Shown piece after piece: positions 20,030 to 62,774 of a DNA stretch of 64,000 nt (within the stretch, counting starts at the first letter, position 1; every line of letters starts with the position of its first letter). A program made the translations under genes and the position numbers. The stretch covers positions 1-64,000 of the forward strand of contig CAVZPM010000037.1 in NCBI GenBank assembly GCA_963777155.1, written 5' to 3'. The stretch is from Candidatus Bathyarchaeota archaeon. Its GTDB lineage: Archaea; Thermoproteota; Bathyarchaeia; Bathyarchaeales; Bathycorpusculaceae. Under the pieces are notes generated by a model. That model saw nothing but the letters and a program-made list of their open reading frames with translations. It made no database searches and was not told the DNA's origin.

Positions 20030-20053
20030 TGTGTTAGGCTAGGCACAATCACA
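20030..20053 (-). promoter_or_regulatory. 24-bp regulon palindrome upstream of TATA
   Basis: Minus strand TGTGATTGT gcctag CCTAACACA then acTTTTTATA. Confidence 0.65.
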
Positions 20054-20620
20054 TGTGGATAATTCTCTTCTTTAATGTAATTATAGATTCATTTTTGAGT
20101 CTAAACAAAAATTTTATTAACAAAAAGCTTGACTTGTTGAATCAAACAATCGCTAAGTAGCTTAAACTACCTTTAAGACATGGCAAGCTTGGGAGACAAT
20201 TTCTAGCAGAAAAACCGACTGAAATCAAAAAGATAATATTCTTTTTTAAATTACCAAAGTACAGTTTTTACTGTCACTCAAACGCGCGTAACCGTATTCA
20301 AGTATTGTCGAGACTCAAACAAGAAATATCTTCTTTAGAAGAAAAATAAAGTCTAGCAATGTCTTCGACGAATCGGGCGCCATAGGACAAATCAACCGCT
20401 ATGTTATAGGTTCTGATTATAAGGTGAAAATCCGTAAGCCTTTCCCACTATAACCCCAGAACTGCATTAGGAAAATCTTGGAAAAAGAATTATTTGATAA
20501 TTTTAAAATCCCCTAATTCGTGTAGTGTACACAAATATTACGATGCACGATATGCTTATATTTCGGTTCTCACATTCTTAAAATATTAAATCGTACGATA
20601 ATCCAGAGGAGAAGTGTTTC

Positions 20621-20758
20621 GTGAAATCATTAAAGAAAATTGAGTGGGGTCTCACTGCACTTGCGTTGACACCATTGTCTGGGCTCGAGAAGAAAGAACG
20701 GAATAGAAGACTCAAAGAGCGATTGAAGCGTACAGAACAAGAACATAGTCACAACTGA
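20621..20758 (+). CDS. 45-aa small protein (not in ORF track)
   Basis: GAGGAG RBS, GTG start, MKSLKKIEWGLTALALTPLSG...EHSHN*. Confidence 0.45.
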   Translation: MKSLKKIEWGLTALALTPLSGLEKKERNRRLKERLKRTEQEHSHN

Positions 20759-20899
20759 AAAGTAAATCTTACTTCTAAAATGCATCTGTAATTTAGATTA
20801 GATTATAAGGGTATTCGTTGGTAGAATCCAATAAATTTTTCATCAATCTGCAAAGAAAAAATACATACTACCACATTTGTATTTCATCAAACCATCAAG

Positions 20900-20990
20900 A
20901 AGAGTAGGAAAAGAGAGAGTAGAGTTAACTTGGGCACAAACATCGGGAAAAGAGAGAGAAATGCCTGCGTCCAAGGTAACTTCTACCTAT
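20900..20990 (-). ncRNA. Candidate small RNA: long hairpin with CU-rich loop
   Basis: Stem 20919-20986 with G-U pairs favouring the minus strand; TATA 21013-21020 and regulon motif upstream; no ORF. Confidence 0.55.
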
Positions 20991-21023
20991 TACGACACAT
21001 GATTCTTAGCAGATAAATAATGA

Positions 21024-21047
21024 TGTGACTGCATACAGACAGCAACA
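21024..21047 (-). promoter_or_regulatory. 24-bp regulon palindrome (sRNA promoter)
   Basis: Minus strand TGTTGCTGT ctgtat GCAGTCACA tcaTTATTTAT. Confidence 0.7.
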
Positions 21048-21167
21048 TTTAGAGTTCATTGAAAAAATGTTTTGCGTTAAGAAGGTACTAAGATTTAAGA
21101 CCTGCTTAGTAAAAGGCATAGCTTCTGTCTTATGAAACAAAAAAGCAAAGAACACTGTAATATTGCC

Positions 21168-21374
21168 TTAGCTTCCTTCAACAACGAAGGCTATTTTGAC
21201 TACTGCTCTGTACTCTGCAATTTTGTTGTTTTCCACTTTTGCCTTGCAGCTTTTAACATAAATAGATTTAATGTTTTTAACTGTCTTTGCCGCTTGTGCT
21301 AAAGCATTCTTAACAGCATCTTCCCAATCATTTGGTGAAGTTCCAATTAACTCAATTATTTTCACAACAGTCAT
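21168..21374 (-). CDS. Dodecin family flavin-binding protein
   Basis: VKIIELIGTSPNDWEDAV..A...A.KTVKNI...EYR..VKIAF. Confidence 0.93.
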   Translation of the reverse strand: MTVVKIIELIGTSPNDWEDAVKNALAQAAKTVKNIKSIYVKSCKAKVENNKIAEYRAVVKIAFVVEGS

Positions 21375-21424
21375 CTATTTTGCTCTCCAACATAATTGTC
21401 AATCAACCAGCGAATAAGAACCTG

Positions 21425-21448
21425 TGTGACTACAAAAGGGACACAACA
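21425..21448 (-). promoter_or_regulatory. 24-bp regulon palindrome (dodecin promoter)
   Basis: Minus strand TGTTGTGTC cctttt GTAGTCACA caggTTCTTATT. Confidence 0.65.
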
Positions 21449-21771
21449 AGTTATCGCCAACAGATTTTTGTTTCATCCTTCTTTAGAGTTTGAAAGTAAT
21501 TCAGAGAAAACTTTGCTAACTCGCTAATAGACTAAGACACTGGTTTTCTGCATGGACAATACATGCTGTGGTTAGATTGCTTATGCTTCAGTTTTCCCTC
21601 TTTAACAAACACCAAATGCCCACAGTTCTTGCATCTTAGCTGAATATCAGGCTTACCCATAGTAACTTGGGTAAGAATTCAACATTCTTTATACTTTTGT
21701 GATTGAGATGACGTACGTATACATGAACTTCTTAACAGTCACCAGACTCTACATAACAGCACCATTGTTTT

Positions 21772-22053
21772 CTATAGTTTTTGGCGTGTTGGTTTTTTCT
21801 GCGTACCATTAAATTGATTTTTTGGAAATGCCGGTTTTGTTTCGTGTTCTAGAAGTTCTTTTAGATGCCAGACTGTTACATCTCGGTCATTAGGTTGCTG
21901 ATTTATCCATAATTCACGGTACTCTCGGAATTGTTTCCCTGTAATTTTGCCCTTTGATTGCAGCTCACTTAGCAATCTTATGAAGGTTCTGAGCTTTATC
22001 TGCTCATCAGTTTCTGTGCTACTCATTTGTTTCTCTCCTTTTTTGGTCGCCAA
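21772..22053 (-). CDS. Hypothetical protein
   Basis: GGAGAG RBS before MSSTET; GKITG.QFREYRE. Confidence 0.55.
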   Translation of the reverse strand: MATKKGEKQMSSTETDEQIKLRTFIRLLSELQSKGKITGKQFREYRELWINQQPNDRDVTVWHLKELLEHETKPAFPKNQFNGTQKKPTRQKL

Positions 22054-22199
22054 TTTCTCTCTGTCTGGCTGCGGATAACCAGTATATAGGAAAAGAGTAA
22101 AAAATGTTATCTCAAGCTCTCTACTATGCTTGGATAAAATTTTCTCTTTACTTGAAGGATTGGAAAAAAAGTTAAACTTTAATGCACAAAAATGTTGGT

Positions 22200-22406
22200 C
22201 TAAGAAGGGGTCTGTTTTATTTCAGACTTTCTTGATTTACGTCTTAAGAAGTAACCAACACCCAATAGAACAAAAGCCGCAATTGCCAATGAAAGGTTCA
22301 CAGTTGCATTTTGTGAAGGTATAAGAAAACCTTGAGCTAATAAAAAAACTAATATTGCAAAAGCTATTGCGTAAAGAATGTATCCAGCTACTATATTGGA
22401 TTTCAT
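22200..22406 (-). CDS. Small 2-TM membrane protein
   Basis: Two hydrophobic helices and a basic tail. Confidence 0.65.
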   Translation of the reverse strand: MKSNIVAGYILYAIAFAILVFLLAQGFLIPSQNATVNLSLAIAAFVLLGVGYFLRRKSRKSEIKQTPS

Positions 22407-22654
22407 GTTTTCACAGACTTGTAGTTGTTTTAACCGTGTTTAAAAGTCTTTAGAATCCAAACAAGAATCTCCAAAAATCAAAGAAAGAAAAAATGGAAGA
22501 TAGCGTGTGTGATTAAATTCTAATCTTTCTCTCTCTCTCGACTCAAACTCACTAACGACTACGACTACTAACTCTCACTCACCCACGCACGCGCGTGCCC
22601 CCGCACCCTGTCAGTCAGTCTGTCAAACTGCCTGTCTCACTGTCAGCGCTCGCT

Positions 22655-22678
22655 TGTAGTTGTGGTTCTACAGTCACA
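22655..22678 (+). promoter_or_regulatory. 24-bp regulon palindrome
   Basis: TGTAGTTGT ggttct ACAGTCACA aatcGTTAAAT. Confidence 0.7.
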
Positions 22679-22725
22679 AATCGTTAAATGACTGTAAGCT
22701 AGTTTTACAAGGTGGTGTTAAAAAA

Positions 22726-22959
22726 ATGAGCTTTTTGCATGCTAAAAACGGTAGTTTAGCTGTGTGGCTTTGTTGTGCTATTTTTGCAATAGTATCACGC
22801 ACAGGCTGCGAATCAGTTATACAAGCAGTGAATAAACAAATGAATATTTGGGATAATAAAAAAGGCGGTTTAGCTGGTTGGCTCTGGTACGCTATTGTAG
22901 TAGTAGTACTAATAATAATTCTTATCCTTGCTTTGAGATTTCTTTTCAACTTGATATAA
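22726..22959 (+). CDS. Small membrane peptide with internal duplication (alternative start 22840)
   Basis: GGTGGTG RBS; AKNGSLAVWLCCAI vs NKKGGLAGWLWYAI. Confidence 0.55.
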   Translation: MSFLHAKNGSLAVWLCCAIFAIVSRTGCESVIQAVNKQMNIWDNKKGGLAGWLWYAIVVVVLIIILILALRFLFNLI

Positions 22960-22985
22960 GACAAGCTGGAAGTAGGAAGATAGAG

Positions 22986-23314
22986 CTAGGGTTTCTTGAT
23001 GAACCGCCCTGTCTTCAAGTCTCTATATCTCGCTTGCTTGGCACCCTTAATGTTGACTGTTTCTATTCTCCAAGTGATAGCTCTCTTTCCAGCATTGTAG
23101 ACTTCAGAATAGCGTTTTCCTAGCATTGCTTTTTTATAAACGTCAGGAACATTGAAACCCAAGTTTTCAGCTTCTCTATTCAAAGCTTCCCATTGTCGAG
23201 TTAAACCTTTCCATCGTTGACCAGCCCACCAGCGAAAAGCAGTGGTAAATTGATGGTAAGACTCAAATCTGCCAATGCCCACATCGTTCTCAAATCTTCT
23301 GGGAACTTGTCCAT
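22986..23314 (-). CDS. Basic hypothetical protein of mobile-element type (frameshift near N-terminus)
   Basis: GGAG RBS and MDKFPE at 23314 joining ORF 22986..23282, which ends RYRDLKTGRFIKKP. Confidence 0.55.
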
Positions 23315-23399
23315 GTCAGTCGTCTCCTATAAGCAAAGAGATACCTCTCTTTTCCAGACCTGTATCGTAAACCACTTTTTCAACAAGGACTTATCATAG

Positions 23400-23548
23400 T
23401 GGATTTGATTGATAATTCTTGGCACCCATTCTTTCTTTTCGGTTCTCAGATATTTAGCAAACAAAAGAGCCTATTCGCTAATCAACGTGTCAATGGTTTG
23501 TCTTTTTCCGACCTTGATTCTTTCAATACTAACTTTGGAAAGAAAATT
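23400..23548 (-). pseudogene. cas1: C-terminal remnant resembling archaeal solo Cas1/casposase
   Basis: Manual translation FLSKVSIERIKVGKRQTIDTLISE*ALLFAKYLRTEKKEWVPRI; resemblance to Bathyarchaeia Cas1 C-termini recalled from memory, not searched. Confidence 0.5.
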
Positions 23549-23649
23549 TTAGCCCTCATGCCGATACTGCAAATGCTGCATAAAAATGGAGAGGGTCGGT
23601 TTTAAGTTTTCTTGGGGCTGGCAAAGTAGGGATGTAGGTGCATTGTCTT

Positions 23650-24069
23650 CTATTGAGTGAGCCGATAACTTGTTTCGTCGATTACTCCATTGTGATATGT
23701 TCCGTGCCACTCAAGGACCGCACCGCCTGAAGTGCAGACAGCCGTTATGGTATAGGTTGGGTCAGTGGCGTCTGCAGGGCGCTGAATGGTTAAGTTCCAT
23801 CCCTGATCTGGACTCGCGTAAAGGTAGGAGTCCTTTCCAGCTTCAAAATTATACCGTATTCCACCTTCCCAAGCAAAATTATGCATCATAAAAGATGTTT
23901 CGGGATGGTTGTCTTTAATATAACTGATTGTAGCTTCACGGGCTTTAATCTCGGGTGGAGTTTGACCGTTGAAAAGAAACAACCATACGCCAATCGTTAT
24001 TAACAGTATAGACGCAACCGCTATCACTAAAACGAATTTCTTCTTCATCAGCCCACCTTCTTTATCCAT
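23650..24069 (-). CDS. N-terminally anchored secreted protein
   Basis: MKKKF followed by TM, then soluble domain. Confidence 0.65.
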   Translation of the reverse strand: MDKEGGLMKKKFVLVIAVASILLITIGVWLFLFNGQTPPEIKAREATISYIKDNHPETSFMMHNFAWEGGIRYNFEAGKDSYLYASPDQGWNLTIQRPADATDPTYTITAVCTSGGAVLEWHGTYHNGVIDETSYRLTQ

Positions 24070-24306
24070 GCGCTAATTCGGTATAAGAAACTTTGCAAGC
24101 TAGAGCATCCACTAACAAAAAAAGCGCATTCCCCAATAATTATCCAGCAAGCACAGGGGCACAGGATAATTCAAAAAAATACTGTGAAAATAGTGGATAT
24201 TTATTTGAGTTTTTGCAATTTAATTTCGGCATCCGCCTCAGAGATAAACGGCAAATGGTTTAGAGAAATAAATGCTGGGCATATTTCTGTGTGAAAAAGC
24301 TCATGA

Positions 24307-24687
24307 CTATTTTTGGTTATCAGGTTTTTGGGGAGACCTCAATTGGTTTCTTATTATTATGAAAAGCGCAAAAAAGAGTATACCTGCTGTGATGCCTGAA
24401 GTGATGCCCATGATGTACAAAGCCTCCCACGCCGGCATAGAGGTGCTCAGGTACTTGAACGACCCGATAAGTATGAACAGGGAGGCTGATCCGATTAATG
24501 AAATTCCCAGAGCCATCAAAACACTGCTAATTATGCTTATTATGAGCAGTCTTTTGAGGCGTTTCTTGAAAGCTGCTTCCGCTTCATTCACGTATTCTTT
24601 GAGGAGAGCTTTTATCTCACTTAGAATTGCCCCGATTATTTCCCTTAATGAAATCTTTTCTGACATTGACAATTTCGCCTCTTCCAA
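24307..24687 (-). CDS. Phage-holin-like/YqjE-like 2-TM protein
   Basis: Amphipathic N-terminus then two TM helices; downstream of CsbD. Confidence 0.6.
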   Translation of the reverse strand: MEEAKLSMSEKISLREIIGAILSEIKALLKEYVNEAEAAFKKRLKRLLIISIISSVLMALGISLIGSASLFILIGSFKYLSTSMPAWEALYIMGITSGITAGILFFALFIIIRNQLRSPQKPDNQK

Positions 24688-24775
24688 AATATCCGCTTGA
24701 TCTCAAATTTTTTGATTTCTTGAAAACTTATTTGGGATGATTATTGAAGCGTTGAATGGCTTGTCTTATGCTTTG

Positions 24776-24940
24776 TTAAGCTTTTCTTTTTGCTTTGCCT
24801 ACTTCTTCCTGGACCTTGCCTTGTACTTGTTGTACTTTGCCCTTAATTTGTTCAGTTTTGTCGCCTGTTATTTTGCCTAAGCCTTCGCGGACTTTGCCTT
24901 CTCCCTGTTTAATTTTACCTTTAGTTTCATCTTTGCTCAT
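24776..24940 (-). CDS. csbD: CsbD family general stress protein (54 aa, not in ORF track)
   Basis: MSKDETKGKIKQGEGKVREGLGKITGDKTEQIKGKVQQVQGKVQEEVGKAK. Confidence 0.9.
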   Translation of the reverse strand: MSKDETKGKIKQGEGKVREGLGKITGDKTEQIKGKVQQVQGKVQEEVGKAKRKA

Positions 24941-24985
24941 AAAAATTCACTACAGACTATTGTCTCACCGTTTTTATTAAACGTG

Positions 24986-25009
24986 TGTGACTGCTATCTC
25001 ACACCAACA
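24986..25009 (-). promoter_or_regulatory. 24-bp regulon palindrome (csbD promoter)
   Basis: Minus strand TGTTGGTGT gagata GCAGTCACA cacgTTTAATAA. Confidence 0.75.
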
Positions 25010-25158
25010 AACAATGCATCTAATCGTGAGAATACACAATCACCTTTATGGTTGCAAAAAACTGGAAAGGAGCCGATAATGAAAAAAATGTGTTCGGGTG
25101 GTAATTTTTCTTAGCGAAAAAGAATACTTTCGTTCACCCCAACGTGCGTCAAGGAGTA

Positions 25159-25356
25159 CTACTTCTTTTGTCTTACGGCGACCTTAGCTTTCAATTCGAA
25201 GATAGTGTCTTCGCCGGTTTTTCCAACACCAAAGTTCCATTCTAATACTTCAACTTCCATGTCTTTGAAGTGTGAAACCCAGGTTTTCTGGAATTCGTCC
25301 CATTTTTCACCCATCTTCTGTATCTGTTCCTTAACGTCTATTTTTTGTTCTGGCAT
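25159..25356 (-). CDS. Small hypothetical protein
   Basis: GGAGGTG RBS, 65 aa. Confidence 0.7.
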   Translation of the reverse strand: MPEQKIDVKEQIQKMGEKWDEFQKTWVSHFKDMEVEVLEWNFGVGKTGEDTIFELKAKVAVRQKK

Positions 25357-25422
25357 AATTTATTACACCTCCTAACTCAACCATTTTTTTGTTAACGATT
25401 TCGGGTAGTATTTTGGCGTATG

Positions 25423-25582
25423 TTATACTCTGCGCCCTGAAAGCAGCCGGACCAATATTATGATGACGGCTATGACAAGCAGTACCCATATGATGGTGCC
25501 AAGGTTGAAGATGAAAAAGCCTAAGAAGCCATAGTATGATAAGAATCACAGCAACCGCGAAAAGAAAATCAAGTGCTCCCAT
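25423..25582 (-). CDS. lmo0937/DUF5670-like small membrane protein (frameshift)
   Basis: Repaired reading MGALDFLFAVAVILIILWLLGFFIFNLGTIIWVLLVIAVIIILVRLLSGRRV. Confidence 0.8.
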
Positions 25583-25630
25583 TTTCAAAAACCTTCACTT
25601 ACCCATAACTCGGTAGCCTATTTTAAGATG

Positions 25631-25654
25631 CGTGACTGTGAATAGACAGTAACA
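25631..25654 (-). promoter_or_regulatory. 24-bp regulon palindrome
   Basis: Minus strand TGTTACTGT ctattc ACAGTCACG catcTTAAAATA. Confidence 0.75.
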
Positions 25655-25787
25655 ACTTCCAAGAGCATCCGCTAAGCCAAGAAAAATAACTGCCTAAAAA
25701 TAGAAGCGAACCTCTCCTCAATATAAGCACACTTTTAGGCTAAAAAACAGCTAAATTTACCCACTAAAAAAGAAAGAAAGATGATGC

Positions 25788-25997
25788 TTACTGCTTGTTG
25801 ACTTTGCTCTTCCAGTAAAGCAGAATCGCACCCGTCACAGTGGATGCTAACGCAGTCGCCGGAGCCTTAATCTCCAGCGGGATCGGCAAAGAAGCAACAA
25901 ACGTAGTAGCAGCGCCCGCAACTGTGCCAGCCAAAACGATCAGGGCTTCCTTATTCTCAGATACCTCTATCTCATCAACCAAACAAATCACCTCCAA
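25788..25997 (-). CDS. Small 2-TM protein (holin- or virion-protein-like)
   Basis: GGAGGTGA RBS; two short hydrophobic helices; next to right element end. Confidence 0.55.
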   Translation of the reverse strand: MEVICLVDEIEVSENKEALIVLAGTVAGAATTFVASLPIPLEIKAPATALASTVTGAILLYWKSKVNKQ

Positions 25998-26166
25998 GAA
26001 GCGTTAACAGGAAAAAATCATTTTGAAAGTATTCAGTGAGAGTAAGAGTAGAGGAGTAGGAGTAGATTTTAGTTGGTAAATCAGAGAGAGAAAGATTAAA
26101 TTCTAATCCAATCAACCAACCACTTCAAAATTAGAGGCAGTTTTAGAAACAAGGAAGCATGAACGT

Positions 26167-26517
26167 TTATACCCACTTTGTTTGAGACTGTGAATATAGT
26201 TTTCTCAGTTGTAGAACCTGCCAAAAAACAGCAATCCACGACAAAATTGTAAGTACAACTAATAGTCCAGACTGGATAACGTATCGGTAATACTGAATAT
26301 CTGTCTGGTTTACTGGAACAAGTACTTGCAATACAACTCCTGTCGGTGTTTTTGGCCATGGAAGAAAAGTGTATCCTGGAGTTGACCATTTGAGGGTTCC
26401 TTCATATTCGTAAATATGAGAGGCTACATAGTGGGCAGAAAAACTGTAAACTGAAATGACCATCGCTACTGAAATTAAAACAGCTAAAACAATCTTCGCT
26501 TTTTTGCTTTTTTTCAT
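26167..26517 (-). CDS. 2-TM membrane protein flanked by two GATTA-N5-TAATC sites
   Basis: ORF track; sites at 26094 and 26582. Confidence 0.65.
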   Translation of the reverse strand: MKKSKKAKIVLAVLISVAMVISVYSFSAHYVASHIYEYEGTLKWSTPGYTFLPWPKTPTGVVLQVLVPVNQTDIQYYRYVIQSGLLVVLTILSWIAVFWQVLQLRKLYSQSQTKWV

Positions 26518-26697
26518 GCTGTTCGATTAACTATTTAAGTTTTTTATGGGTCTTAAATTTTTCTATAGACTGAAAAGTGACAATTAAGATTTAATCCAAC
26601 CAACAAATTAACTTAGTTTTGTAATTCGTATAAGTACCCTTTATTAATAAAATAACTCAAGTTTCATTTAGGTGGGCTCTTCGACAAGTAACTTTAA

Positions 26698-26871: not shown

Positions 26872-27152
26872 TTATTTTCACCAAAACCGAAAAAGTCAAA
26901 AGTAAATAAGTCGTTGCTGTGTTTTTCCAAGTTCTTCCGCTCTGTATGCGTATTGTTGGCTTGTTTCTTTAAGCCTTCCTATCGGTTTTTCCCTCTGCTT
27001 TGTGAGAAGCTCTCCTTTCTCCTCAAACAAAAGGGTGACTCTAAGGCTTAAAGGAATAGTTCAACCTGGAATAAATCAAAAGAAAACAACTTAGTAAGCT
27101 ACTTTCAATTAGTTAGAAATTAATGGAGAATCACACAACAATACACAAGATT

Positions 27153-35083: not shown

Positions 35084-35107
35084 TGTGGTAGCCGTATGCC
35101 AACAACA
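35084..35107 (+). promoter_or_regulatory. 24-bp regulon palindrome (cupin promoter)
   Basis: TGTGGTAGC cgtatg CCAACAACA aagcCTTAACTT. Confidence 0.55.
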
Positions 35108-35165
35108 AAGCCTTAACTTTGTGTTTTCTCGAACCAATAGTCAAGAAAATGAGGTGTTTTTTAGA

Positions 35166-35543
35166 ATGCGAGCTTCAAAAAACGAATTGACTAAGGCTAT
35201 GGATTCCGACGAGTTGGCTATGTATGAAGGAGTTTGGGGTGAAATGCATGTTGAATACGATGTTTTCAAAACAGCAATGGACATTACCCCTTACCTGAAG
35301 GGACTGCCAAATGACAGAGACCCTTGTCCACATTGGGGCATCGTTGTTAAGGGTCAGATAACGATTGTTTATGACGATAGAAAAGAGACTGCTAAAGCGG
35401 GAGACGCCTACTATTTTCCGCCCAGTCACACAGGTATGGCTGAAGCAGGTACAGAGGTCTGGGAATTCAGCCCCAATGACAAACTGCAGAAAACCATGGA
35501 AGTAATAAACCGCAATATGGAAGCAATGATGGCAAAGAAATAA
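35166..35543 (+). CDS. Cupin domain protein
   Basis: GAGGTG RBS; CPHWGIVVKG...GDAYYFPPSH. Confidence 0.85.
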   Translation: MRASKNELTKAMDSDELAMYEGVWGEMHVEYDVFKTAMDITPYLKGLPNDRDPCPHWGIVVKGQITIVYDDRKETAKAGDAYYFPPSHTGMAEAGTEVWEFSPNDKLQKTMEVINRNMEAMMAKK

Positions 35544-40679: not shown

Positions 40680-40943
40680 TCAAAGAAGCTCTACTGCTTC
40701 TTGCCTCGGTATAGCTACAAGCGTTTCTGTGGATACGAACTCCGCCACACCTAAGGAGAATTTTAACGCTTCCTTTTCGTTTGCTGCTTCAAATACAACA
40801 ACTGTATCATAGCGTCCAAGTGTCCAATACCAGTTCAGAATGTTTATTCCCTTCTTCTTAAACTCCGCTACTTTTTCGGTGGCGTTACCAGCCGTTGTTT
40901 TGTCAGGCTTACTCCGCATTTTTCCTAGACTTACAAATATCAA
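40680..40943 (-). CDS. GYD domain protein
   Basis: YWTLGRYDTVVVFEA...TETLVA. Confidence 0.9.
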   Translation of the reverse strand: MIFVSLGKMRSKPDKTTAGNATEKVAEFKKKGINILNWYWTLGRYDTVVVFEAANEKEALKFSLGVAEFVSTETLVAIPRQEAVELL

Positions 40944-40960: not shown

Positions 40961-41308
40961 TCATTTCGGGTTTGTTTTAGTCGTGAACCAATAGAAAACT
41001 GCAGGTTCGTTTCCGATGGTCCAGCCATCATGCCCTGGCGGAATATCGACCACGTCGTCTGGGCCGAAATCCATTTCTTGACCATCGTCCGCTCTCACAC
41101 GCAACCTACCTGAAACTAACACCCCGAAATGATGCACTTGACACGAATCTGTTTTAGCGATAGGTTTAATATCTTTTGACCATTGCCAACCAGGTTGATA
41201 AGTCTGCTTTAAAACAGTCATATCGCCAATTGTGATGTTCTCTGTCCTTACGTTAGGAGGTGTCTGAGTCGCATCAGGATTCTGAAAATTCTTTTTTTGT
41301 AGAACCAA
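40961..41308 (-). CDS. Cupin domain protein
   Basis: PGWQWS...CQVHHFG...IPPGHDGW. Confidence 0.9.
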   Translation of the reverse strand: MVLQKKNFQNPDATQTPPNVRTENITIGDMTVLKQTYQPGWQWSKDIKPIAKTDSCQVHHFGVLVSGRLRVRADDGQEMDFGPDDVVDIPPGHDGWTIGNEPAVFYWFTTKTNPK

Positions 41309-41354: not shown

Positions 41355-41378
41355 AGTGGTTGTAAGATTACAGTCACA
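41355..41378 (-). promoter_or_regulatory. 24-bp regulon palindrome (cupin-GYD promoter)
   Basis: Minus strand TGTGACTGT aatctt ACAACCACT cttcCTTAATA. Confidence 0.7.
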
Positions 41379-56077: not shown

Positions 56078-56264
56078 TTTTCTTTTTCTCCTTTTTCTTT
56101 CTGGATACGACATCTATAACAAAGTTAATTTAAAACTTACGATAGACCAACAAAAGCATCTGACAAAGAAAACAAATAACTACAGAATAGTCGATATTGT
56201 ACGAAAAAAACACCAAACATAAAACAGGAAATACTTAAATGACGCCCCACAATCAAAATGATAA

Positions 56265-57245
56265 ATGGTTATCTCAACGAAAGAAATTGATCACATTGAT
56301 GCAACAATAATAAAGGAACTACTCATAGATGGTCGAAGAAATTTCACTGAAATTGCAAAACAATGCAAACTATCAAAAAGTGTGATACAGAAAAGATACA
56401 AAGAACTAAAAAACGCAGGCATAATTGTTGGCGCCACGGTTCAACTGGATTACCCAAGCTTCGGCTATAATGCAGTAGGCAACATTCTATTCAAAGTCGA
56501 GCCTCAGCAGGCGGACCAGATCGTAGAGTATGTAAAAAAAATGCCAAATATCCATGCCGCTTGGCGAACTGCCAGAACCTCCGAAATAAATGCTGTAGTA
56601 ACAATGGAAAGTCTCGAAAAACTAGAAAATATCAAAGAAAGCATTAGGAAAATACCGTCAGTTTTGGAACTGAGAACCTATATCTGGACAGGCATAAGAA
56701 ATATCAGAGAAAACTTGGCGATAGCACCTCTAGAAGTGCTGAATAAAACAAATGGACATATAACAAATAAGTCCAGAAGAACGGAAAGTAAAACTGACCA
56801 AACGGATAAGCGTATAATTGAAAAACTTGCAGTCAATGGTCGAATGTCCTTTAGGAAGCTGGCGAAAGAACTGGCGATTTCAACAGATACAGTTGCAAGA
56901 AGATATGAAAAACTGAAGAGAAACGGCACAATTAAGGTTTTAATTCAATTGGATACAGCAAAGATTGGGTACCATGGGTACGCCACTTTCTACATTGCAT
57001 TTGTATCTCAAAGCAGCTTGATTTCAATGGTAGAGAATCTCTGCAAAATCCCCGATATAGTTTTGATTATTCAAACCAGTGGAAGTTTTGACCTCTTGGT
57101 GGAAGCTATGATAAAAGATCTTGATCAATTATTATTCCTTCAAGATAATATTGCAAGTATGCCTGGCGTCGCAAGGAATGAAATGCATTTAAGCAGACCT
57201 ACCGCCGTTTTTCCCACTCCCCGCGAATACATATCAACATTCTAA
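56265..57245 (+). CDS. Lrp/AsnC regulator with two tandem HTH+RAM modules
   Basis: D.ID..II.EL..DGR..F.EIAK and D.TD.RII..L...GR.SF..LAK. Confidence 0.92.
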   Translation: MVISTKEIDHIDATIIKELLIDGRRNFTEIAKQCKLSKSVIQKRYKELKNAGIIVGATVQLDYPSFGYNAVGNILFKVEPQQADQIVEYVKKMPNIHAAWRTARTSEINAVVTMESLEKLENIKESIRKIPSVLELRTYIWTGIRNIRENLAIAPLEVLNKTNGHITNKSRRTESKTDQTDKRIIEKLAVNGRMSFRKLAKELAISTDTVARRYEKLKRNGTIKVLIQLDTAKIGYHGYATFYIAFVSQSSLISMVENLCKIPDIVLIIQTSGSFDLLVEAMIKDLDQLLFLQDNIASMPGVARNEMHLSRPTAVFPTPREYISTF

Positions 57246-57367
57246 AAAATGCATAATGCTTTTTTTCTAAAAAAGAAGCCTCATGCCAGCTAAGTAATTT
57301 CCACAAACGATATGCGAAGAAGATAGTAGAAAAAAGGAGTTTTGCACGTGATATCTTCACATCAAAC

Positions 57368-57391
57368 GAGGTTCAAATCCCCCCGTTCCAC
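57368..57391 (+). other. tRNA T-arm-like fragment
   Basis: GAGGTTCAAATCCCCCCGTTCCAC; no D or anticodon arm. Confidence 0.35.
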
Positions 57392-57609
57392 TTCTCTGCA
57401 TATAAATCTGTATTTTTAAGGGTTTGCTGAGGCTCTGGGGTAGGAGAAAAGAGTAAACACAAACGCTCTTTTTTAACTACAACTATTTTTTTGGACTATG
57501 AAGAGCCTCCATTTAACATCTACTCTCAAACTAAAGTAATGTTCCCTTGATACCCGTGCATTTGCTGAAGTACCAATTATTTTGTCTTTGAAAAAATAGA
57601 CACACCGCG

Positions 57610-57879
57610 TCATTTAATAAAGTAAAAATAGGCTACCAGTAATCCTTGAATGAATAGAAAGATTGGAACTATTAAGAACTTGATTTTACGAGTTTTGTGT
57701 CTAAAAAACAACATACCAGCATAGGCACCAAACGGTCCAAAAAATGCAATCAACAAAAGCCTTGACTCAGGAACCCTCCAACTTCCCTTTTGGCTGTTCA
57801 ACTTGTCTATTCCAAAAACTGTTAAAGAGATAAAATTTACAATCACTAGAAAGATCCACAGGAACAAAACTTGAGTCAT
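57610..57879 (-). CDS. DUF1294 family membrane protein
   Basis: FGIDK...WRVPE..L...G.FGA..GM..FRHKTRK. Confidence 0.92.
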   Translation of the reverse strand: MTQVLFLWIFLVIVNFISLTVFGIDKLNSQKGSWRVPESRLLLIAFFGPFGAYAGMLFFRHKTRKIKFLIVPIFLFIQGLLVAYFYFIK

Positions 57880-58077
57880 ATTACTCCCACAGACAGAAGA
57901 TAGCTATAAGTTTTCTCTGATTACAGAATCGAACTGTTCCAGTTCATCTATTGTAAATGGCCTATATTTTTTTATTTGACCTCTTCATGAATCTACCAAA
58001 TGTAAGTTAGTAAAGAAAAGTCTTCCAAGGTCTTTCAGAATCTGGCCCTACAGAGAAAAAGAGGTTTTTCTGATACA

Positions 58078-58176
58078 TTAATGCACGCTATTATACCATC
58101 TGTTGACTTCTTGGATTGTTTTTTCAGAATATCCGTTTTTTCTTAAAAGAGTCCTATTGGACGAAGTCTTCCTCAT
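58078..58176 (-). CDS. 32-aa small protein (not in ORF track)
   Basis: GAGGAG RBS; MRKTSSNRTLLRKNGYSEKTIQEVNRWYNSVH; regulon motif upstream. Confidence 0.5.
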   Translation of the reverse strand: MRKTSSNRTLLRKNGYSEKTIQEVNRWYNSVH

Positions 58177-58226
58177 TATTTCTTCTCCTCAAGAATATTA
58201 ATACTCACTACTCATAATTAAGAGTG

Positions 58227-58250
58227 TGCAGTAGGCACCACACAATCACA
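58227..58250 (-). promoter_or_regulatory. 24-bp regulon palindrome
   Basis: Minus strand TGTGATTGT gtggtg CCTACTGCA cactcTTAATTAT. Confidence 0.55.
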
Positions 58251-58715
58251 CAGCTGGTTAGGTAGCAGTAAAGTAAAATAAATAAATAAGAAAAATAACC
58301 AAAAAAAGTTAAAGGTTAAGTTTTAATGGGACAAAATCGCGTTTTTGGCTGAAATCCAAACAGTGTTCTCCGGTATGGTCACATTCATATTTATTCAATC
58401 GGTAATTCAAACAACGCCTAAACAGTTTACAGGTCACACTAAAACACTGTGATTGTCAATAAATCATATTCAAGTTAAAAAGGCAAATTTCTAAAACAAT
58501 AATATATCAAAGGATGTAACTCAAGAAGCAGAGGGACGCTAATCAACACGAGCCTAACATCTCTATGGGAGTTAGAGGTCATATTCTTCCAAGTATACTG
58601 GAGCGGTCACTTCCCATCCGCCCTTTGAACGCAGATAGTTTTCTAAACTCAAGATCGATCCACTAATTCTACGCTAGGTTTTTTGTAATTAGTTAGCGTG
58701 CGCTTCTTCGGAAAC

Positions 58716-59993
58716 CTATTTGAGAGCAGTGTTAGTTTCATGGTTTTGAGGGTCATAGGAGCTGGTTGTAGGGTTTGATCTTTCTAGGAGGTCGTCTCGG
58801 CGTTTGAGGAGTTTTTCGAATTGTTCGTCCGTTATCTTGTCGTCTATGAGCATTTTGAAGATGGAGGCGGATATGTTTTTCATTTCTTGTTGAAATTTCT
58901 GGAGGTCTGGGGAGTATAGGTCGTAGATAGTTACCATGGTTTTGAAGAGGTGGTGGTAGAGTTTGTTTCGTCGCCATAATGTTCGGCCTCGAAGTCCTGT
59001 GATGCTGAGCACTAGTAGTGAAGCCAATGCAGCCCAACCAGCTGGAGTAGTAAACCAAAGGCTGGCATCTTTTTGTAAAATTTGTGCTAGAGATTCTGCT
59101 GGTGAACCACTGATGACTGTGTAGTTTGATGGGTATTGGTCGCCTCTTGCTATTGTGAATGTGGCTGTGTTTTCGCTGTGTGTACTTGATGGGAAGGTTT
59201 GTTTTATTTCTGTGTTCGCAGGCATGTTAACGTCGATGATTTGGTTTATTTTGAAGGTGTAACCTTGATAGCTGGTTGAGACTGGAAGGGTGAGGGTGTA
59301 GTTGTCGCCGTGTTGAGATAGGATGCTGGCTGGAGCTTCGAAGTGTAGGCTGTAGTATTGCTCGTCTTCATTGTAGTCCTTGTAGAGTTCCCATCGGCTT
59401 AGACTACCAACTGAGATTGGTGTCAAGTTAAACCCTGTTAACCAGTTTTCTAGGTTTCCCTGTCCAACAAGGTATTCGGGTGTTCGCGTTATATGGAACC
59501 ATATCCATAATTCGGTGGTTGAGTCTTCGGCGTTGAAAGAGAAGGTAACTCGAGTTGTGTTAAAGGGTACGTTGTACCAGTTCGTATCAACGCTCCAAGA
59601 AAAGTTTAGCCATGGACCTGGATCGGCAATAACTCTGTTTTGGAAACTTGAGAAGGAAGCGAAGTTTGCTTCGTACAAGTCTTCCGCGGTCGGCTGCAGA
59701 AGCGACCAGTCGAACATCTCGTAGGTTGAGACGAATATGTCGTTTGGACCAATTAGGCTCTGAGTCATGGATGCTTGGTACCAAGCTCCATCAGATATCC
59801 ACGTTGGTGCTTGGGGTAAGATACCTTCTTCAGACCAACTAACCTGTCCCATTGAAGGGGTGATGATATCGTGTATTTGCCAGACGTCAGTTTCGGCTTT
59901 GACGCATCCCAAGGTGAAAGAAAAAATTAAGATGATAAATAAAATAAACATCGCTGAAATGTGAAGACTATAACGTCCATTTTTTCTCCCCAA
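58716..59993 (-). CDS. Secreted membrane-anchored protein with cytoplasmic helical tail
   Basis: Signal peptide, beta-rich ectodomain, TM, KITDEQFEKL tail. Confidence 0.75.
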   Translation of the reverse strand: MGRKNGRYSLHISAMFILFIILIFSFTLGCVKAETDVWQIHDIITPSMGQVSWSEEGILPQAPTWISDGAWYQASMTQSLIGPNDIFVSTYEMFDWSLLQPTAEDLYEANFASFSSFQNRVIADPGPWLNFSWSVDTNWYNVPFNTTRVTFSFNAEDSTTELWIWFHITRTPEYLVGQGNLENWLTGFNLTPISVGSLSRWELYKDYNEDEQYYSLHFEAPASILSQHGDNYTLTLPVSTSYQGYTFKINQIIDVNMPANTEIKQTFPSSTHSENTATFTIARGDQYPSNYTVISGSPAESLAQILQKDASLWFTTPAGWAALASLLVLSITGLRGRTLWRRNKLYHHLFKTMVTIYDLYSPDLQKFQQEMKNISASIFKMLIDDKITDEQFEKLLKRRDDLLERSNPTTSSYDPQNHETNTALK

Positions 59994-60265
59994 TAGAGCC
60001 CCTCCAAACTGAGTATTTGTTTATTGTTTGTACATAAAAGTTTTTTCAATTGCGAAAGTCGGCTAGCGCGCGATGTTTTATCCTAAAATATCAACGTTTG
60101 GATTTGGATTAAATTTTGGTCTTTCTTACGTCTCAAAAAAATAGTGTCAATTGCATTAATTTTGGAAGGCGTCAACTTTCTTGGACTCGTTCCACCTCTT
60201 TGGTTTTTGCCCCGCGTCGAGCTCGTGATTTCACTCGCAAAACTCTCCTTTTCAAAGCAGCTAAT

Positions 60266-60465
60266 GTTAGGAACCTGTGTTCTCAAAATCAGCAAAATAG
60301 AGTTGGCAAGAGACAAAGGTTTCTTTGCATATTAGCACATCGGGCTTCTTAAGAAGTGTTATTTAGCACTAAAAATAACATGCCATTAGGTTGAGCGCAT
60401 GGAAAACAAATTATTATGGACATATTGCGACTACCCAGAGGAAGCTAAAGCATGAGCAACCACAA
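60266..60465 (+). repeat. ~200-bp duplicated upstream region, copy 1 (copy 2 at 61058-61256)
   Basis: gttaggaa.ctgtgttctcaaaa...gcttcttaagaagtgttatttagca.taaaaataacatgcc...aaagcatgagcaac. Confidence 0.88.
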
Positions 60466-60579
60466 AACTCCCCCTGAAAACAAAAGCTACCATGGTGGCA
60501 TCTACAGCTATTTCATGAATCAAAAACTGCTAAAAGCTAAACAAAGTAATCAAATCAAAAACAATAAGAGGAATATCTA

Positions 60580-60828
60580 GTGGATAGGATTCAAGCTTTA
60601 GATCTTCTTAAAGAAATTGCAAGCAAAATTCCAGAGTTGGGACCGGAAGCTATGTCCATAGTGAAAAGTGAACCCAATAATCCCCAACGGACAGGTTGTG
60701 CAATAACCTTCAAAGGGTTAACAAACGAGTGCATAGAGCAAATTAAGAAAATTGTAGAGAACCATTCTTTGGCAATCTTAGACAATAAGCTTGATTTAAC
60801 TATCTACACCCCAGTGGTTAATGCTTAG
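60580..60828 (+). CDS. Small hypothetical protein (paralogue of 14618..14863)
   Basis: GAGGA RBS; shared motifs. Confidence 0.65.
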   Translation: MDRIQALDLLKEIASKIPELGPEAMSIVKSEPNNPQRTGCAITFKGLTNECIEQIKKIVENHSLAILDNKLDLTIYTPVVNA

Positions 60829-60854
60829 CTGTATTTACTGGAAGTGAACATTTG

Positions 60855-61019
60855 TTGGCATGTCCTAAGTGTGGAAAAAATGAAGTAAAAACAGAAGTAA
60901 ACACAAACACAGGGCAAGTTCTGGTTCTGTGCTCGAATAAGGCTTGTCGTTTCTTGCTTTCGAAAAGCTGGGTTTTAGAAACCGAAATAAAATTATTAGA
61001 AAGGCGTTGCAGTTGTTAA
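60855..61019 (+). CDS. 54-aa zinc-ribbon protein (not in ORF track)
   Basis: MACPKCGK...CSNKAC. Confidence 0.55.
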   Translation: MACPKCGKNEVKTEVNTNTGQVLVLCSNKACRFLLSKSWVLETEIKLLERRCSC

Positions 61020-61057
61020 AAAATTGACAGAAGCATCTCCCCTCTAAAACATCTACA

Positions 61058-61256
61058 GTTAGGAAACTGTGTTCTCAAAATATGCAAAATAGAGTTGACA
61101 ACAAGGCAAAGAAATCTTTGCAGATTAGCAAATCAAGCTTCTTAAGAAGTGTTATTTAGCATTAAAAATAACATGCCGTTGGTTGAGCGCATGGAAAGTA
61201 AGTTATCAAAGACATATTTCGACTACCAAGAGGAAGTCAAAGCATGAGCAACACAA
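61058..61256 (+). repeat. ~200-bp duplicated upstream region, copy 2
   Basis: Matches 60266-60465. Confidence 0.88.
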
Positions 61257-62242
61257 GAGATACGGTTATTAAAGTCAAGAGTTTAGAAGAGGAAAAACAA
61301 AACCTGCTAGCCCAATTTGAAGAGCTCAAAAGGCTGGCTGATATGAAATCTAAGTCTTTAGAAAATGAAATTTCAGCTATAAAAGATCAAATAGAATCGC
61401 TAAAAGCAATAATGGGTCAGGAACAGAACCAGCTTTCAAATCACAAATCGCTTGGAGCAGAGAGTCAAGATTCTGTAATGAGACTAGTGGAAAAAATAAT
61501 TAGTGAATCAAACGAACTTGGAAATCAGATTTTTGAGTTTTCTCCCTATAGCCAATATTTTGACAGTTGGCTTGTTAATCTGCAGCAAATTATTTCTGAA
61601 TTTGAATTAGATTCCAATATAAAGCTGGATGAATTGTTTGTTAAGGATCGTTCGCGGATTTTCCTAGACATTAAACAAACCCTTACTCAAATACGGCTTG
61701 AAGAATCAAAGCTAAGTATTAATGAAAAAGCATTAAAGGACAACAATCAACTTTTGATCGAAATCGAAAAGGACTATAACAAAAAGATAAAAGAAATAGA
61801 TGAAAAGAAAAACTCAGAAATTCCACGCTTAACTAATCGAATTCAAGAACTTGAATACGAAGTAGAAAGTCATGAGGAAATAAAATCCAAGATTCCGAAA
61901 CCATTGGCTAACATGTCAAAACAATTTACTGCTTCGTCAAGAAAAGAATGGAATGAAGAAAGAAAACAAGCGGCGGAAAAACTTGCCCAAACAAAACAAG
62001 ACCTTAAATCAACTAAGAACGAGTTGGAAGCGGTCCAGCAAAGCTTTGATGCTCAGCAAGAAGAGCTGAAAGAAAGTTATGAGAAAAAGAAACAGGACAT
62101 TATGGTAAAGGTAGTAAATTTGCAGAATGAACTTGAAAAGATGAAGACTGATACATCCATAGACGCAAGGCGAGCGACGAGTAAGGCGCTAGTTAATTCT
62201 ATTAATGCTCTAATCCAGAGGACGACGAAATCAAATTCTTGA
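61244..62242 (+). CDS. Long coiled-coil protein
   Basis: 332 aa E/K/L/Q heptads. Confidence 0.8.
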   Translation: MSNTRDTVIKVKSLEEEKQNLLAQFEELKRLADMKSKSLENEISAIKDQIESLKAIMGQEQNQLSNHKSLGAESQDSVMRLVEKIISESNELGNQIFEFSPYSQYFDSWLVNLQQIISEFELDSNIKLDELFVKDRSRIFLDIKQTLTQIRLEESKLSINEKALKDNNQLLIEIEKDYNKKIKEIDEKKNSEIPRLTNRIQELEYEVESHEEIKSKIPKPLANMSKQFTASSRKEWNEERKQAAEKLAQTKQDLKSTKNELEAVQQSFDAQQEELKESYEKKKQDIMVKVVNLQNELEKMKTDTSIDARRATSKALVNSINALIQRTTKSNS

Positions 62243-62372
62243 ACTTAAATCTGTTCTAATAGTTTTTTGAAGAACTACTTTTTTTGTTGGGTTCCCACAA
62301 ACAATACACGCATGAAATAACTAAACTCTTTGCTGCGATTTCAGCAGTCGCTAACAAAGAGGGAATGTTTGT

Positions 62373-62708
62373 TTACGATAGTACGAAGCCGATAACGAAA
62401 CCTACGATGAGTCCTAATCCTAGGGGCAGCACACCCATTAGAAGCACCCCATATTGTATTGCTATAGGGCCATATGTGTCTGCAATTCCTTTCAAGGCGC
62501 CAAGGCTTAATCCGAAAAACCCGAAGTAAGCAACCACGACCAGTATAATCGCCGCTATTATCGCAATCTTTAACATCTTGTGAAATAGGTAACCCACGAT
62601 AAGCCCGATAACAAATGGAATAATCATCAAAACTAATGGTGGAATCCCGCCGATGCTTCCTGTAGTGATAAAATTAATTACTTCTTCTATAGCACCCAAA
62701 ATCAACAA
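62373..62708 (-). CDS. Small membrane protein (FUN14-like)
   Basis: G..G..VGY...K.LKI...; 3 TM helices. Confidence 0.65.
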   Translation of the reverse strand: MLILGAIEEVINFITTGSIGGIPPLVLMIIPFVIGLIVGYLFHKMLKIAIIAAIILVVVAYFGFFGLSLGALKGIADTYGPIAIQYGVLLMGVLPLGLGLIVGFVIGFVLS

Positions 62709-62750
62709 CTCCGACTAATTAGAAGTTATTACAAATTACTATTAAACTTG

Positions 62751-62774
62751 TGTGACTGTGGAGACACATCAACA
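62751..62774 (-). promoter_or_regulatory. 24-bp regulon palindrome
   Basis: Minus strand TGTTGATGT gtctcc ACAGTCACA caagTTTAATAG. Confidence 0.75.

Follow-up and report, generated by a model that had tools for sequence, protein, structure and literature searches.

What is a 24-base palindrome doing beside the TATA boxes of so many genes in an archaeal genome? The locus that raises this question is a stretch of 64,000 nucleotides from a Candidatus Bathyarchaeota archaeon (assembly GCA_963777155.1, contig CAVZPM010000037.1, positions 1 to 64,000), referred to below as the window. An initial annotation, made from the letters of the window, described ten copies of the palindrome, each ending just upstream of a TATA-like box, and proposed that they mark a bacterial-style general-stress regulon. 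The window belongs to a genome of 2.29 Mb in 39 contigs, labeled G000, in which it corresponds to G000:C37:1-64000; here and below, G numbers stand for genomes, C numbers for contigs of a genome, and L numbers for extracted loci. Copies of the palindrome occur throughout this genome and in many of its relatives, and the element is very probably an operator recognized by a protein. On balance, the comparison of genomes favors a single sequence-specific transcription factor, probably a homodimer, as the reader of this operator in soil and peat Bathyarchaeia, with activation as its likelier mode of action.

The palindrome, TGTKRYTGY-N6-RCARYMACA, spans 24 bases and is present in about 40 copies in the genome. 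An oriented consensus from 41 sites reads t-TGT-[T>G]-G-[T>C]-TGT, N6, [A/G]CA-[A/G]-[T/C]-C-ACA, then w-A-n-n-y-TTAA. Within the window, the pattern as first proposed gives 13 strand-matches at up to three mismatches, where 0.99 are expected (100 shuffles, the largest count being 7). These matches cover seven of the ten original positions, with sites 20030, 35084, and 58227 requiring more mismatches; the ideal form of the palindrome, also at up to three mismatches, matches five positions against none expected.

Scans of the whole genome used a symmetrized matrix built from the ten original sites, with the half-sites alone scored and the spacer set to each length from 0 to 14. With a spacer of 6 there are 39 intergenic and 5 coding matches of at least 16 bits (34 and 3 at 18 bits or more), while every other spacer yields 0-9 intergenic and 0-9 coding matches at the 16-bit threshold, and permuting the columns of the matrix, done 30 times, yields 5.4 matches on average and at most 14. 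A second, independent matrix was built from 31 sites that all lie outside the window. At a threshold of 14 bits it finds 45 intergenic matches genome-wide for spacer 6 and 1-10 for the others. A strict pattern, allowing at most one mismatch to the palindrome given above, occurs 31 times in the genome, in comparison with one or two times when the spacer is changed to 4, 5, 7, or 8. The octamer CAGTCACA on its own shows no genome-wide enrichment (72 observed, 63 expected), so the signal resides in the paired arrangement and not in the word. Both the excess over chance and the preference for noncoding DNA are those of an operator. Scored with the independent matrix, eight of the ten original sites are solid (17.4-24.2 bits), site 58227 is borderline, and site 21425 is too degenerate to pass.

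The palindrome also keeps a regular position relative to the core promoter. Among the 92 flanks of the 46 sites that score at least 16 bits, the first TATA-like hexamer begins 2-6 nt (0-based) past the end of the motif in 40, with 22 at offset 4; another 17 flanks have it at offsets 9-34, and 35 lack it. In flanks directed toward a called start at 20-120 nt (24 in all), the bases at +6 to +9 are T in 18, T in 18, A in 19, and A or T in all 24. Start codons in these gene-facing flanks are mostly 37-72 nt from the motif, a distance consistent with short leaders and with transcription that begins about 25 nt past the TATA box. Since the TATA core is 5 nt away, the last ACA of the motif falls at the expected place of the transcription factor B recognition element (BRE), and the motif ends at the BRE/TATA junction. 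The distance of 3-5 bp to the TATA-like box and the overlap with the BRE, both claimed from the window alone, were therefore about right.

The same geometry is found in relatives, for which 111 sites (107 distinct with full flanks) were collected from G017, G020, G061, G150, and G172, along with one locus each from about 20 further genomes. A TATA-like core stands 3-7 nt from an end of the motif in 78 of the 107 distinct sites, whereas shifting the frame by 10-60 nt leaves 11-23 of them with one. The tetramers TTAA or TTTA start at +5, +6, and +7 in 42, 40, and 16 cases, in comparison with about 4 per position elsewhere. Some copies face promoters on both sides: TATA-like cores occupy both flanks in 10 of the 107 sites from relatives and, in this genome, at sites 35084 and C37 66881, and a perfect palindrome in G017 (L087) stands between two divergent genes. 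No site of at least 16 bits was seen downstream of its TATA-like box or over the TATA box or start region. The palindrome thus holds a fixed position relative to the core promoter, upstream of and adjacent to the BRE and TATA box, which is the arrangement of Ptr2, TFB-RF1, and upstream TrmBL1 sites.

The element is also conserved before orthologs. An 89-residue protein with no known family is preceded by the motif twice in this genome (C31 56797 and C18 15618) and is the gene most constantly linked to it. A six-sequence alignment of this protein, searched against one genome per species, recovered 53 loci at 53-83% identity, and 52 of the 53 carry a motif of at least 16 bits 59-100 nt before the start codon. 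Nearly all of them have TA after the proximal half and a TTTAA-type box two bases beyond it. Across the 52 sequences, no two of which are identical, mean column entropy is low in both halves (0.43 and 0.48 bits), in the four bases that follow the motif (0.43), and in the TATA box (0.52). The spacer reaches 1.67 bits, the 25 nt before the motif 1.35, and the downstream sequence 1.23. A protein that contacts the half-sites and is indifferent to the spacer would be expected to leave such a footprint. The dodecin site is kept only as a degenerate variant. Taken together, the genome-wide excess, the presence in relatives, and the conservation before orthologs bear out the proposal that a promoter-proximal palindrome marks a regulon.

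An inverted repeat of 9 + 9 bases could in principle exist for reasons other than protein binding. It could form a DNA cruciform or an RNA hairpin, for example as the terminator of the upstream gene, or it could be part of a dispersed mobile repeat, and four copies do belong to a repeat family with conserved flanks. However, the halves are complementary no more often than if they were independent. At the variable pairs 4/21, 5/20, 6/19, and 9/16, the 41 sites of this genome are complementary in 12, 18, 21, and 20 cases against 14.2, 18.7, 17.3, and 20.0 expected, and 99 sites from relatives in 35, 37, 44, and 50 cases against 53.4, 48.2, 46.1, and 53.6 expected. The lack of covariation between the halves indicates that the palindrome is not a hairpin. 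Flank columns beyond the motif and TATA box carry just 0.02-0.13 bits, and the flanks are likewise unconserved among orthologous loci, which is not the behavior of a dispersed repeat or a miniature inverted-repeat transposable element. The palindrome also keeps its place relative to the TATA box and gene starts and shows no such relation to gene ends. An explanation in which no protein reads the palindrome is extremely improbable.

The four copies in question (G000 C8 19921, C8 20092, C36 72018, and C35 1442; loci L005, L027, and L024) share GATAAAAGAAAA adjoining the motif and a recurring GGTTTGCCAAGCCCTCAAT block, with two units in tandem on C8. Because no open reading frame (ORF) is conserved among them, they may represent a family of noncoding transcripts. 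Rfam has no family at or near any motif site, and the sole match in the sources searched is one tRNA in L024. Separately, near-identical motif-bearing loci are found on different contigs (C4/C18, C31/C18, and C23/C32), involving a pair of C2H2 genes, the 89-residue gene, and an HTH_45 gene. They could reflect recent duplication, a mixture of strains, or redundancy in the assembly, for which the contamination estimate is 3.79%.

The palindrome is widespread but uneven among Bathyarchaeia. Of 24 other genomes of the same genus, 20 hold 17-49 strict sites, where a reversed-pattern control gives 0-2; the remainder are G011 (58% complete) with 5 sites, G018 with 1, G024 with 2, and G006 with none. 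Across eleven other families of the order, 16 genomes have 0-3 strict sites each. Among 150 further genomes drawn from the same family, 24, belonging to 12 genera, have 6-64 sites; G120 and G188, which belong to the same genus as G000, have a single site each, and most of the smaller genomes in the draw have none. Motif-rich and motif-poor species coexist in genera g1, g26, g30, and g45, so the system has been gained or lost repeatedly. The contrasting genomes are G006, G018, G120, and G188 against the rest in g1, G050 against G116, G169, and G186 in g26, G126 and G152 against G069 and G173 in g45, and G054 against G119 in g30. Close relatives derive from surveys of fen, palsa, bog, and soil, and some carry the label Bathy6; the archaeal nature of G000 is confirmed by its TFIIB genes. 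In G040, a genome from another family of the order that has three strict sites, a 25.7-bit site (L034) lies before a 128-residue homolog of the 89-residue target, indicating that the system reaches, thinly, beyond the family.

How would a protein bound at this position act? The symmetry of the site suggests that its reader is probably a dimer. Such a factor would occupy roughly positions -59 to -36, with the proximal three bases running into the BRE position and the TATA core following 5 nt beyond the palindrome with a tolerance of about 1 nt. From there it would touch TFB or TBP and help them load, as happens with Ptr2, TFB-RF1, and TrmBL1 at its upstream sites. Contact with TFB or TBP is suggested by three features: every site lies on the upstream side of the TATA box, its spacing is rigid, and one palindrome sometimes serves divergent TATA boxes. 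A spacing that varies by just about 1 nt is a sign of protein-protein contact rather than mere occlusion. There is precedent for both partners, with Ptr2 reported to recruit TBP and TFB-RF1 to recruit TFB, and in the study of TrmBL1, based on chromatin immunoprecipitation sequencing and in vitro transcription, sites upstream of both BRE and TATA box activate while downstream sites repress (PMC4706686).

The same operator could instead be read by a repressor, which would sit on the upstream BRE half and keep TFB off until a signal derepresses the small-protein genes downstream. The last three bases of the motif are indeed at the expected BRE position, and the motif-preceded HTH_45 regulator genes found in some relatives would fit negative autoregulation. 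Many characterized archaeal regulators are repressors. For TrmBL1 itself, 21 of 28 sites are reported as repressive (PMC4706686). In that system, however, the repressive sites lie downstream of the TATA box and the activating ones upstream (PMC4706686), and no site over the TATA box or start region was seen here. Occlusion would not need a spacing fixed to about 1 nt, and a single palindrome shared by two divergent TATA boxes is natural for recruitment. A repressor appears rather unlikely on these grounds and, once a protein operator is granted, an activator is somewhat the better supported choice.

The genes behind these promoters give a first indication of what the regulon may be for. They are short: for the called genes with a strong site 20-120 nt from their start, 24 in number, the median length is 94.5 residues, in comparison with 192.5 genome-wide, and 17 of the 24 have at most 130 residues, a share that is 31% among all calls (Fisher p about 9e-5). 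Recognized families among the targets in this genome are Dodecin, CsbD, Cupin_2 (three, two of them above cut-off), GYD, and KGG (54 bits), along with the lmo0937 family/DUF5670, a DUF4342 protein with a zinc ribbon, DUF2769, a stand-alone receiver domain, a stand-alone Lrp/AsnC ligand-binding domain, and two holin-X-like proteins that remain below cut-off. There are also small single-finger C2H2 proteins, two of which (L029 and L003) were run against Pfam and five of which group by BLAST, some as near-identical copies on different contigs. About half of the target proteins tested have no family. The names first given to the genes of the window held up in part: dodecin, CsbD, the cupin at 35084, and the GYD protein pass their cut-offs, whereas the cupin at 41355 and the holin-X/YqjE-like and lmo0937-like proteins fall below theirs, and the protein called FUN14-like has no match in Pfam or NCBIfam.

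Relatives extend this list. Pfam matches among their motif-preceded genes include Hsp20, hemerythrin, Rieske, and Fasciclin with DUF1508. PRC-barrel is matched only weakly, at 18.6 bits where the cut-off is 21.2, and a DJ-1/PfpI-like protein at L126 was named by eye. Clustering the ORFs downstream of the relatives' sites with the targets of G000 shows which targets are shared. KGG proteins are targets in G000, G017 (twice), G019 (three times), and G020; GYD or cupin-GYD proteins in G000, G011, G061, and G150; and a small protein ending in RYE in G000, G061, and G172. The CsbD, lmo0937-type, FUN14-like (as labeled in the initial annotation), and holin-X-like targets of G000 recur in G020 or G017, a 65-residue protein is a target in G000 and G017, and the Cys/His protein encoded at 19701-20015 in G000 and G012. 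A 3.5-kb island in G150 (L118, C9 166500-174000) has five motif sites around the 89-residue, receiver-domain, and HTH_45 genes. The receiver-domain and HTH_45 genes are divergent there with two sites between them, and the receiver gene is also a target in G000 (C33 4367).

Several of these small targets are of kinds that appear in bacterial general-stress regulons: CsbD, KGG, Dodecin, Cupin_2, and lmo0937 here, and Hsp20, DUF1508, and hemerythrin in relatives. For Salmonella, the CsbD-like YjbJ and the KGG proteins YciG and YmdF have been listed among small proteins controlled by sigma-S (PMC5437024). In view of such parallels, the roughly 40 promoters and their mainly small proteins would probably be switched on together as a protective set under stress or growth arrest. 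A caution against overreading KGG and LEA-like (late embryogenesis abundant) annotations in archaea is voiced in a 2026 paper on desert methanogens (PMC12904285). The bacterial-style character proposed at the outset finds its support in CsbD and KGG here and in Hsp20 and DUF1508 in relatives, while the general-stress label rests on a minority of targets because many have no known family. The chances for and against a role in stress or growth arrest seem evenly balanced.

Which protein reads the palindrome was approached through candidates. A TrmB-family gene at C37 64453-65268 stands beside site 65349, and orthologs at 70% identity or more are found in just four of the 24 same-genus genomes (G002, G003, G013, and G019). 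Motif-poor G024 has 14 TrmB paralogs, in contrast to 2 weak ones in motif-rich G017, and the gene was rejected as the common factor. The 89-residue protein was considered as an autoregulated factor, but the alignment query did not find it in motif-rich G017, G116, or G172. It has no family in Pfam or NCBIfam, its AlphaFold model (mean predicted local distance difference test score 73.9) has no fold match in the PDB at E <=0.001, and Atlas scores are all below 0.9. It is treated here as a target without an assigned function and not as the factor.

A different possibility dispenses with a separate regulator altogether: a specialized TFB or TBP paralog would itself recognize the palindrome as an extended upstream promoter element, in the manner of a sigma factor. 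The rigid distance to the TATA box and the overlap with the BRE are compatible with this, this genome has about four TFB genes (8 TFIIB-repeat matches), and stress regulation directed by general factors has been reported for haloarchaea (PMC2396416). TFIIB-repeat counts do not track the motif, however, with 4 matches in motif-rich G005, G007, G008, G015, G017, and G019 as well as in motif-poor G018, 3 in G006, and 6 in G024. A 24-bp dyad that works in both orientations and at divergent promoters also fits a dimer and not the single helix-turn-helix of TFB. Direct reading by a general factor is very unlikely.

The remaining candidates belong to the HTH_45 family. Of 151 genomes examined in the taxonomic family, 150 have HTH_45 members, so that HTH_45 as a whole does not discriminate, and of its 16 matches in this genome none has a motif of at least 6 bits within 400 nt upstream, except for one at 7.9 bits, a chance-level score. 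A winged-helix subfamily behaves differently. It is motif-preceded in G017, G171, G061, G116, G063, G134, and G069, and in G150 three paralogs are motif-preceded; the site in G087 is weak (11.4 bits). These motif-preceded regulators score 28-72.6 bits against Pfam HTH_45 and match the profile of 1r7j_A, which is Sso10a, at E = 5e-11. The subfamily was not found in the ten motif-poor genomes searched, where the best matches are 31-37% identical or missing. It was also not found in the motif-rich genomes G000 (best match 40% identical), G001, G169, G172, and G173. This Sso10a-like subfamily is the best lead, though only a lead. Because it was not found in several motif-rich genomes and the family is everywhere, it may perhaps be a frequent member of the regulon and not its master regulator. 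Strong expansion in these Bathyarchaeia is seen both for TrmB-like genes, with up to 21 matches, and for HTH_45/Sso10a-like genes, with 4-21, the latter being almost missing from four motif-poor species of the same genus.

In its boldest form, this lead would have a single Sso10a-like coiled-coil activator read the 9-N6-9 site, recruit TFB, and run the entire general-stress program. That is an unlikely proposition. If true, it would give the Sso10a family, hitherto regarded as architectural chromatin proteins, a specific operator and a regulon for the first time, and such a master activator would be an archaeal functional counterpart of sigma-B and sigma-S.

Several observations weigh against an activator of stress genes acting through a symmetric operator. 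The overlap of the proximal ACA with the expected BRE is equally compatible with a repressor that blocks TFB, and an alignment of motif promoters with 358 ordinary upstream regions, made with a loose TATA expression, was too noisy to show whether the BRE of the motif promoters is weak. The half-sites are mildly asymmetric, the distal half preferring TGTTGTTGT and the proximal half, read as its complement, TGTGACTGY, which a simple symmetric homodimer does not predict. In relatives, complementarity at position 4/21 is even below chance (35 observed, 53.4 expected). No cognate factor emerged from the TrmB paralog, the TFBs, the 89-residue protein, or the HTH_45 candidates. Stress-linked family names cover a minority of the targets, many of which have no family at all, and some look unrelated to stress, including the receiver domain, two ORFs that resemble glycosyltransferases by eye, and secreted proteins. 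On the side of method, genes were called with a crude caller of our own (2526 genes, 80% coverage, about 20% noncoding), the related genomes are not independent samples, and the matrices derive from the original sites, making the site lists partly dependent on them; the spacer-shift and column-permutation controls answer this last point in part.

The contig that carries the window is particularly rich in the motif, with 12 of the 46 sites of at least 16 bits on its 99 kb. One motif-dense island lies inside the window at 19.7-26 kb, and a second borders the end of the window (C37 62.7-68 kb), with three further sites just beyond it at C37 65349, 66881, and 67874. The sites of the window and the genes that they precede are collected in the table.

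Palindrome sites in the window and associated genes (scores from the independent matrix; coordinates are those of the window)
Feature	Position	Strand	Score (bits)	Context
Site 20030	20030..20053	-	17.4	TATA-like TTTTTATA on the low-coordinate side
Target of site 20030	19701-20015			90-104-aa Cys/His-containing protein; the G012 homolog is also motif-preceded
Site 21024	21024..21047	-	24.2	Followed by TCATTATTTAT; points into ~20800-20990
Site 21425	21425..21448	-	5.9	Degenerate; before dodecin 21168-21374 (Pfam E = 7e-26)
Site 22655	22655..22678	+	22.8	TATA core 4 nt away; before 77-aa membrane protein 22726-22959
Site 24986	24986..25009	-	21.8	Before CsbD 24776-24940 (46.3 bits, above cut-off)
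Holin-X/YqjE-like membrane protein	24307-24687			Same strand as CsbD and next after it; Phage_holin_3_6 22.8 bits against a cut-off of 28.4
Site 25631	25631..25654	-	19.6	Before lmo0937-like ORF 25331-25588
65-aa protein gene	25159-25356			Overlapped by the lmo0937-like ORF; homologs motif-preceded at C7 31703 and in G017
Site 35084	35084..35107	+	22.3	TATA-like boxes on both flanks; + side before cupin 35154-35540 (Cupin_2 28.9 bits)
Site 41355	41355..41378	-	22.5	Before cupin 40961-41308 and GYD-domain protein 40680-40943
Site 58227	58227..58250	-	14.7	Borderline (left half 1.8, right half 12.9); TATA-like TCTTAATTAT 4 nt away
Site 62751	62751..62774	-	21.8	Before 111-aa multi-span membrane protein 62373-62708; the G020 ortholog is motif-preceded
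Site 62993	62993..63016	+	17.9	Eleventh site, missing from the original ten; TATA core 4 nt away

Site 21024 has the highest score in the window and no convincing ORF in the region it points into. The motif, the TATA box, and blocks of downstream sequence are conserved with indels in L041, L050, and L052, a pattern that, without a convincing ORF, fits a candidate small RNA on the minus strand (20800-21047) better than a microprotein. The locus downstream of the site has no Rfam family. Elsewhere in the genome, sites C25 21009 and C37 67874 likewise lack an ORF as target. At L050, which is at the start of contig C4 in G004, the sequence beside this small RNA-like stretch gives way to repeats of the pentamer CCTAA where the contig ends.

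The degenerate site before dodecin is not noise. Its variant form, TGTTGTKTC, 5-6 nt, GTARYCACA, 4 nt, and TTCTTATT or TTCATAT, is kept before the orthologs in G001, G022, and G015, and sequence farther upstream is unrelated among the loci that keep it. Across the dodecin ortholog loci of nine relatives, the matrix finds no match of at least 11 bits, and the variant was seen by eye in three. A third group of dodecin paralogs (L085, which is G000 C30 16449-16646, L076, and L077) has a different conserved promoter, ATGCAAAAAATAAAAGA ... GCATATAATAT, with no palindrome, and dodecin paralogs are thus wired differently.

The other genes of the first island vary in how well they can be named. The Cys/His protein 19701-20015 has no match in Pfam or NCBIfam, and an Atlas search with its 104-residue form returned only unnamed Bathyarchaeota clusters. 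The 77-residue membrane protein has a weak match to DUF996, below cut-off, while the CsbD gene finds a motif-preceded counterpart in G020. For the ORF at 25331-25588, the match to lmo0937_fam_TM is weak and partial (17.3 bits against a cut-off of 30). It covers about the first 30 residues and is followed by a Pro/His-rich tail that overlaps the next gene (25159-25588, minus strand), and this ORF may be frameshifted or miscalled. An intact lmo0937 paralog outside the window, at C37 65418-65576 near site C37 65349, passes with 42.7 bits.

Farther along the window, the cupin at 41355 scores 24.6 bits against a Cupin_2 cut-off of 27.2, and its GYD neighbor passes with 45.6 bits; the cupin ortholog is motif-preceded in G150 and GYD genes in G011, G061, and G150. 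Downstream of site 58227 there is only a 32-residue ORF (58081-58176). The protein at 62373-62708, first described as FUN14-like, has no match in Pfam or NCBIfam. Site 62993 lies 191 nt before a 252-residue ORF (63208-63966) that looks glycosyltransferase-like by eye, and a paralogous ORF at C25 7485 shares the arrangement.

Bathyarchaeia are among the most abundant archaea of sediments, peat, and soil and are hard to cultivate; one enrichment culture is reported (PMC10989822). Nothing on their gene regulation was found in the literature searched. The palindrome offers a 24-bp probe, about 40 target promoters per genome, and a phyletic pattern with gains and losses inside genera. If the targets prove to be induced together, they would reveal a way for an archaeon that lacks sigma factors to coordinate a general stress-like set of small proteins. 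The rigid spacing to the TATA box also makes the system a clean model for how archaeal regulators contact TFB and TBP. If the palindrome turns out to be the ordinary repressor site of a lineage-specific regulator, it would be a useful annotation and an unsurprising one.

Searches of the literature, with supplementary tables outside their reach, turned up neither the motif nor a regulon described for any Bathyarchaeia, in keeping with the initial impression that the motif was undescribed, and a search with the 9-mer returned only what appear to be unrelated primers and eukaryotic sites. Comparison with known systems helps to place it. CRP/FNR-type sites have the form TGTGA-N6-TCACA. Many copies of the palindrome share the outer pentamers TGTGA and TCACA with them, as well as the dyad symmetry. 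However, the pentamers are 14 nt apart here instead of 6, as noted from the start, and the common half-site TGTTGTTGT is unlike that of CRP; with this difference in spacing, the palindrome is not a CRP site.

Bacterial general-stress regulons under sigma-B in Firmicutes and sigma-S in enterobacteria resemble the present one in gene content, with CsbD-like and KGG proteins shared here and Hsp20 and DUF1508 in relatives. The means of selection differ. Sigma-B and sigma-S choose promoters by their -35 and -10 boxes, whereas here a palindrome stands beside an archaeal TATA box.

The motif-preceded regulators of relatives belong to the same family as Sso10a (HTH_45; PDB 1R7J and 4HW0). In the Sso10a dimer, the two winged helices sit at opposite ends of an antiparallel coiled coil (PMC4941522), a geometry that could, in principle, suit half-sites with centers 15 bp apart. 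The Sulfolobus proteins themselves are presented in that study as architectural chromatin proteins, with no specific operator known for them (PMC4941522).

The closest architectural parallels are archaeal. Ptr2 of Methanocaldococcus, TFB-RF1 of Pyrococcus, and TrmBL1 all use inverted-repeat sites directly upstream of both BRE and TATA box. The Thermococcales glycolytic motif (TGM) that TrmBL1 binds is described as a 19-nt consensus (PMC4706686), in comparison with the 9-N6-9 arrangement of the palindrome, and TrmBL1 sites fall on both sides of promoters and up to 156 bp upstream, whereas the palindrome always ends about 5 nt before the TATA core. The consensus differs from the palindrome, and the neighboring TrmB paralog has orthologs in only 4 of 24 same-genus genomes; with sequence and regulator both different, the palindrome is not the TGM. 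As an archaeal promoter-proximal operator with its regulon, the system appears to be of a known type. Within that type the regulon is unusually large, and its architecture is unusually rigid.

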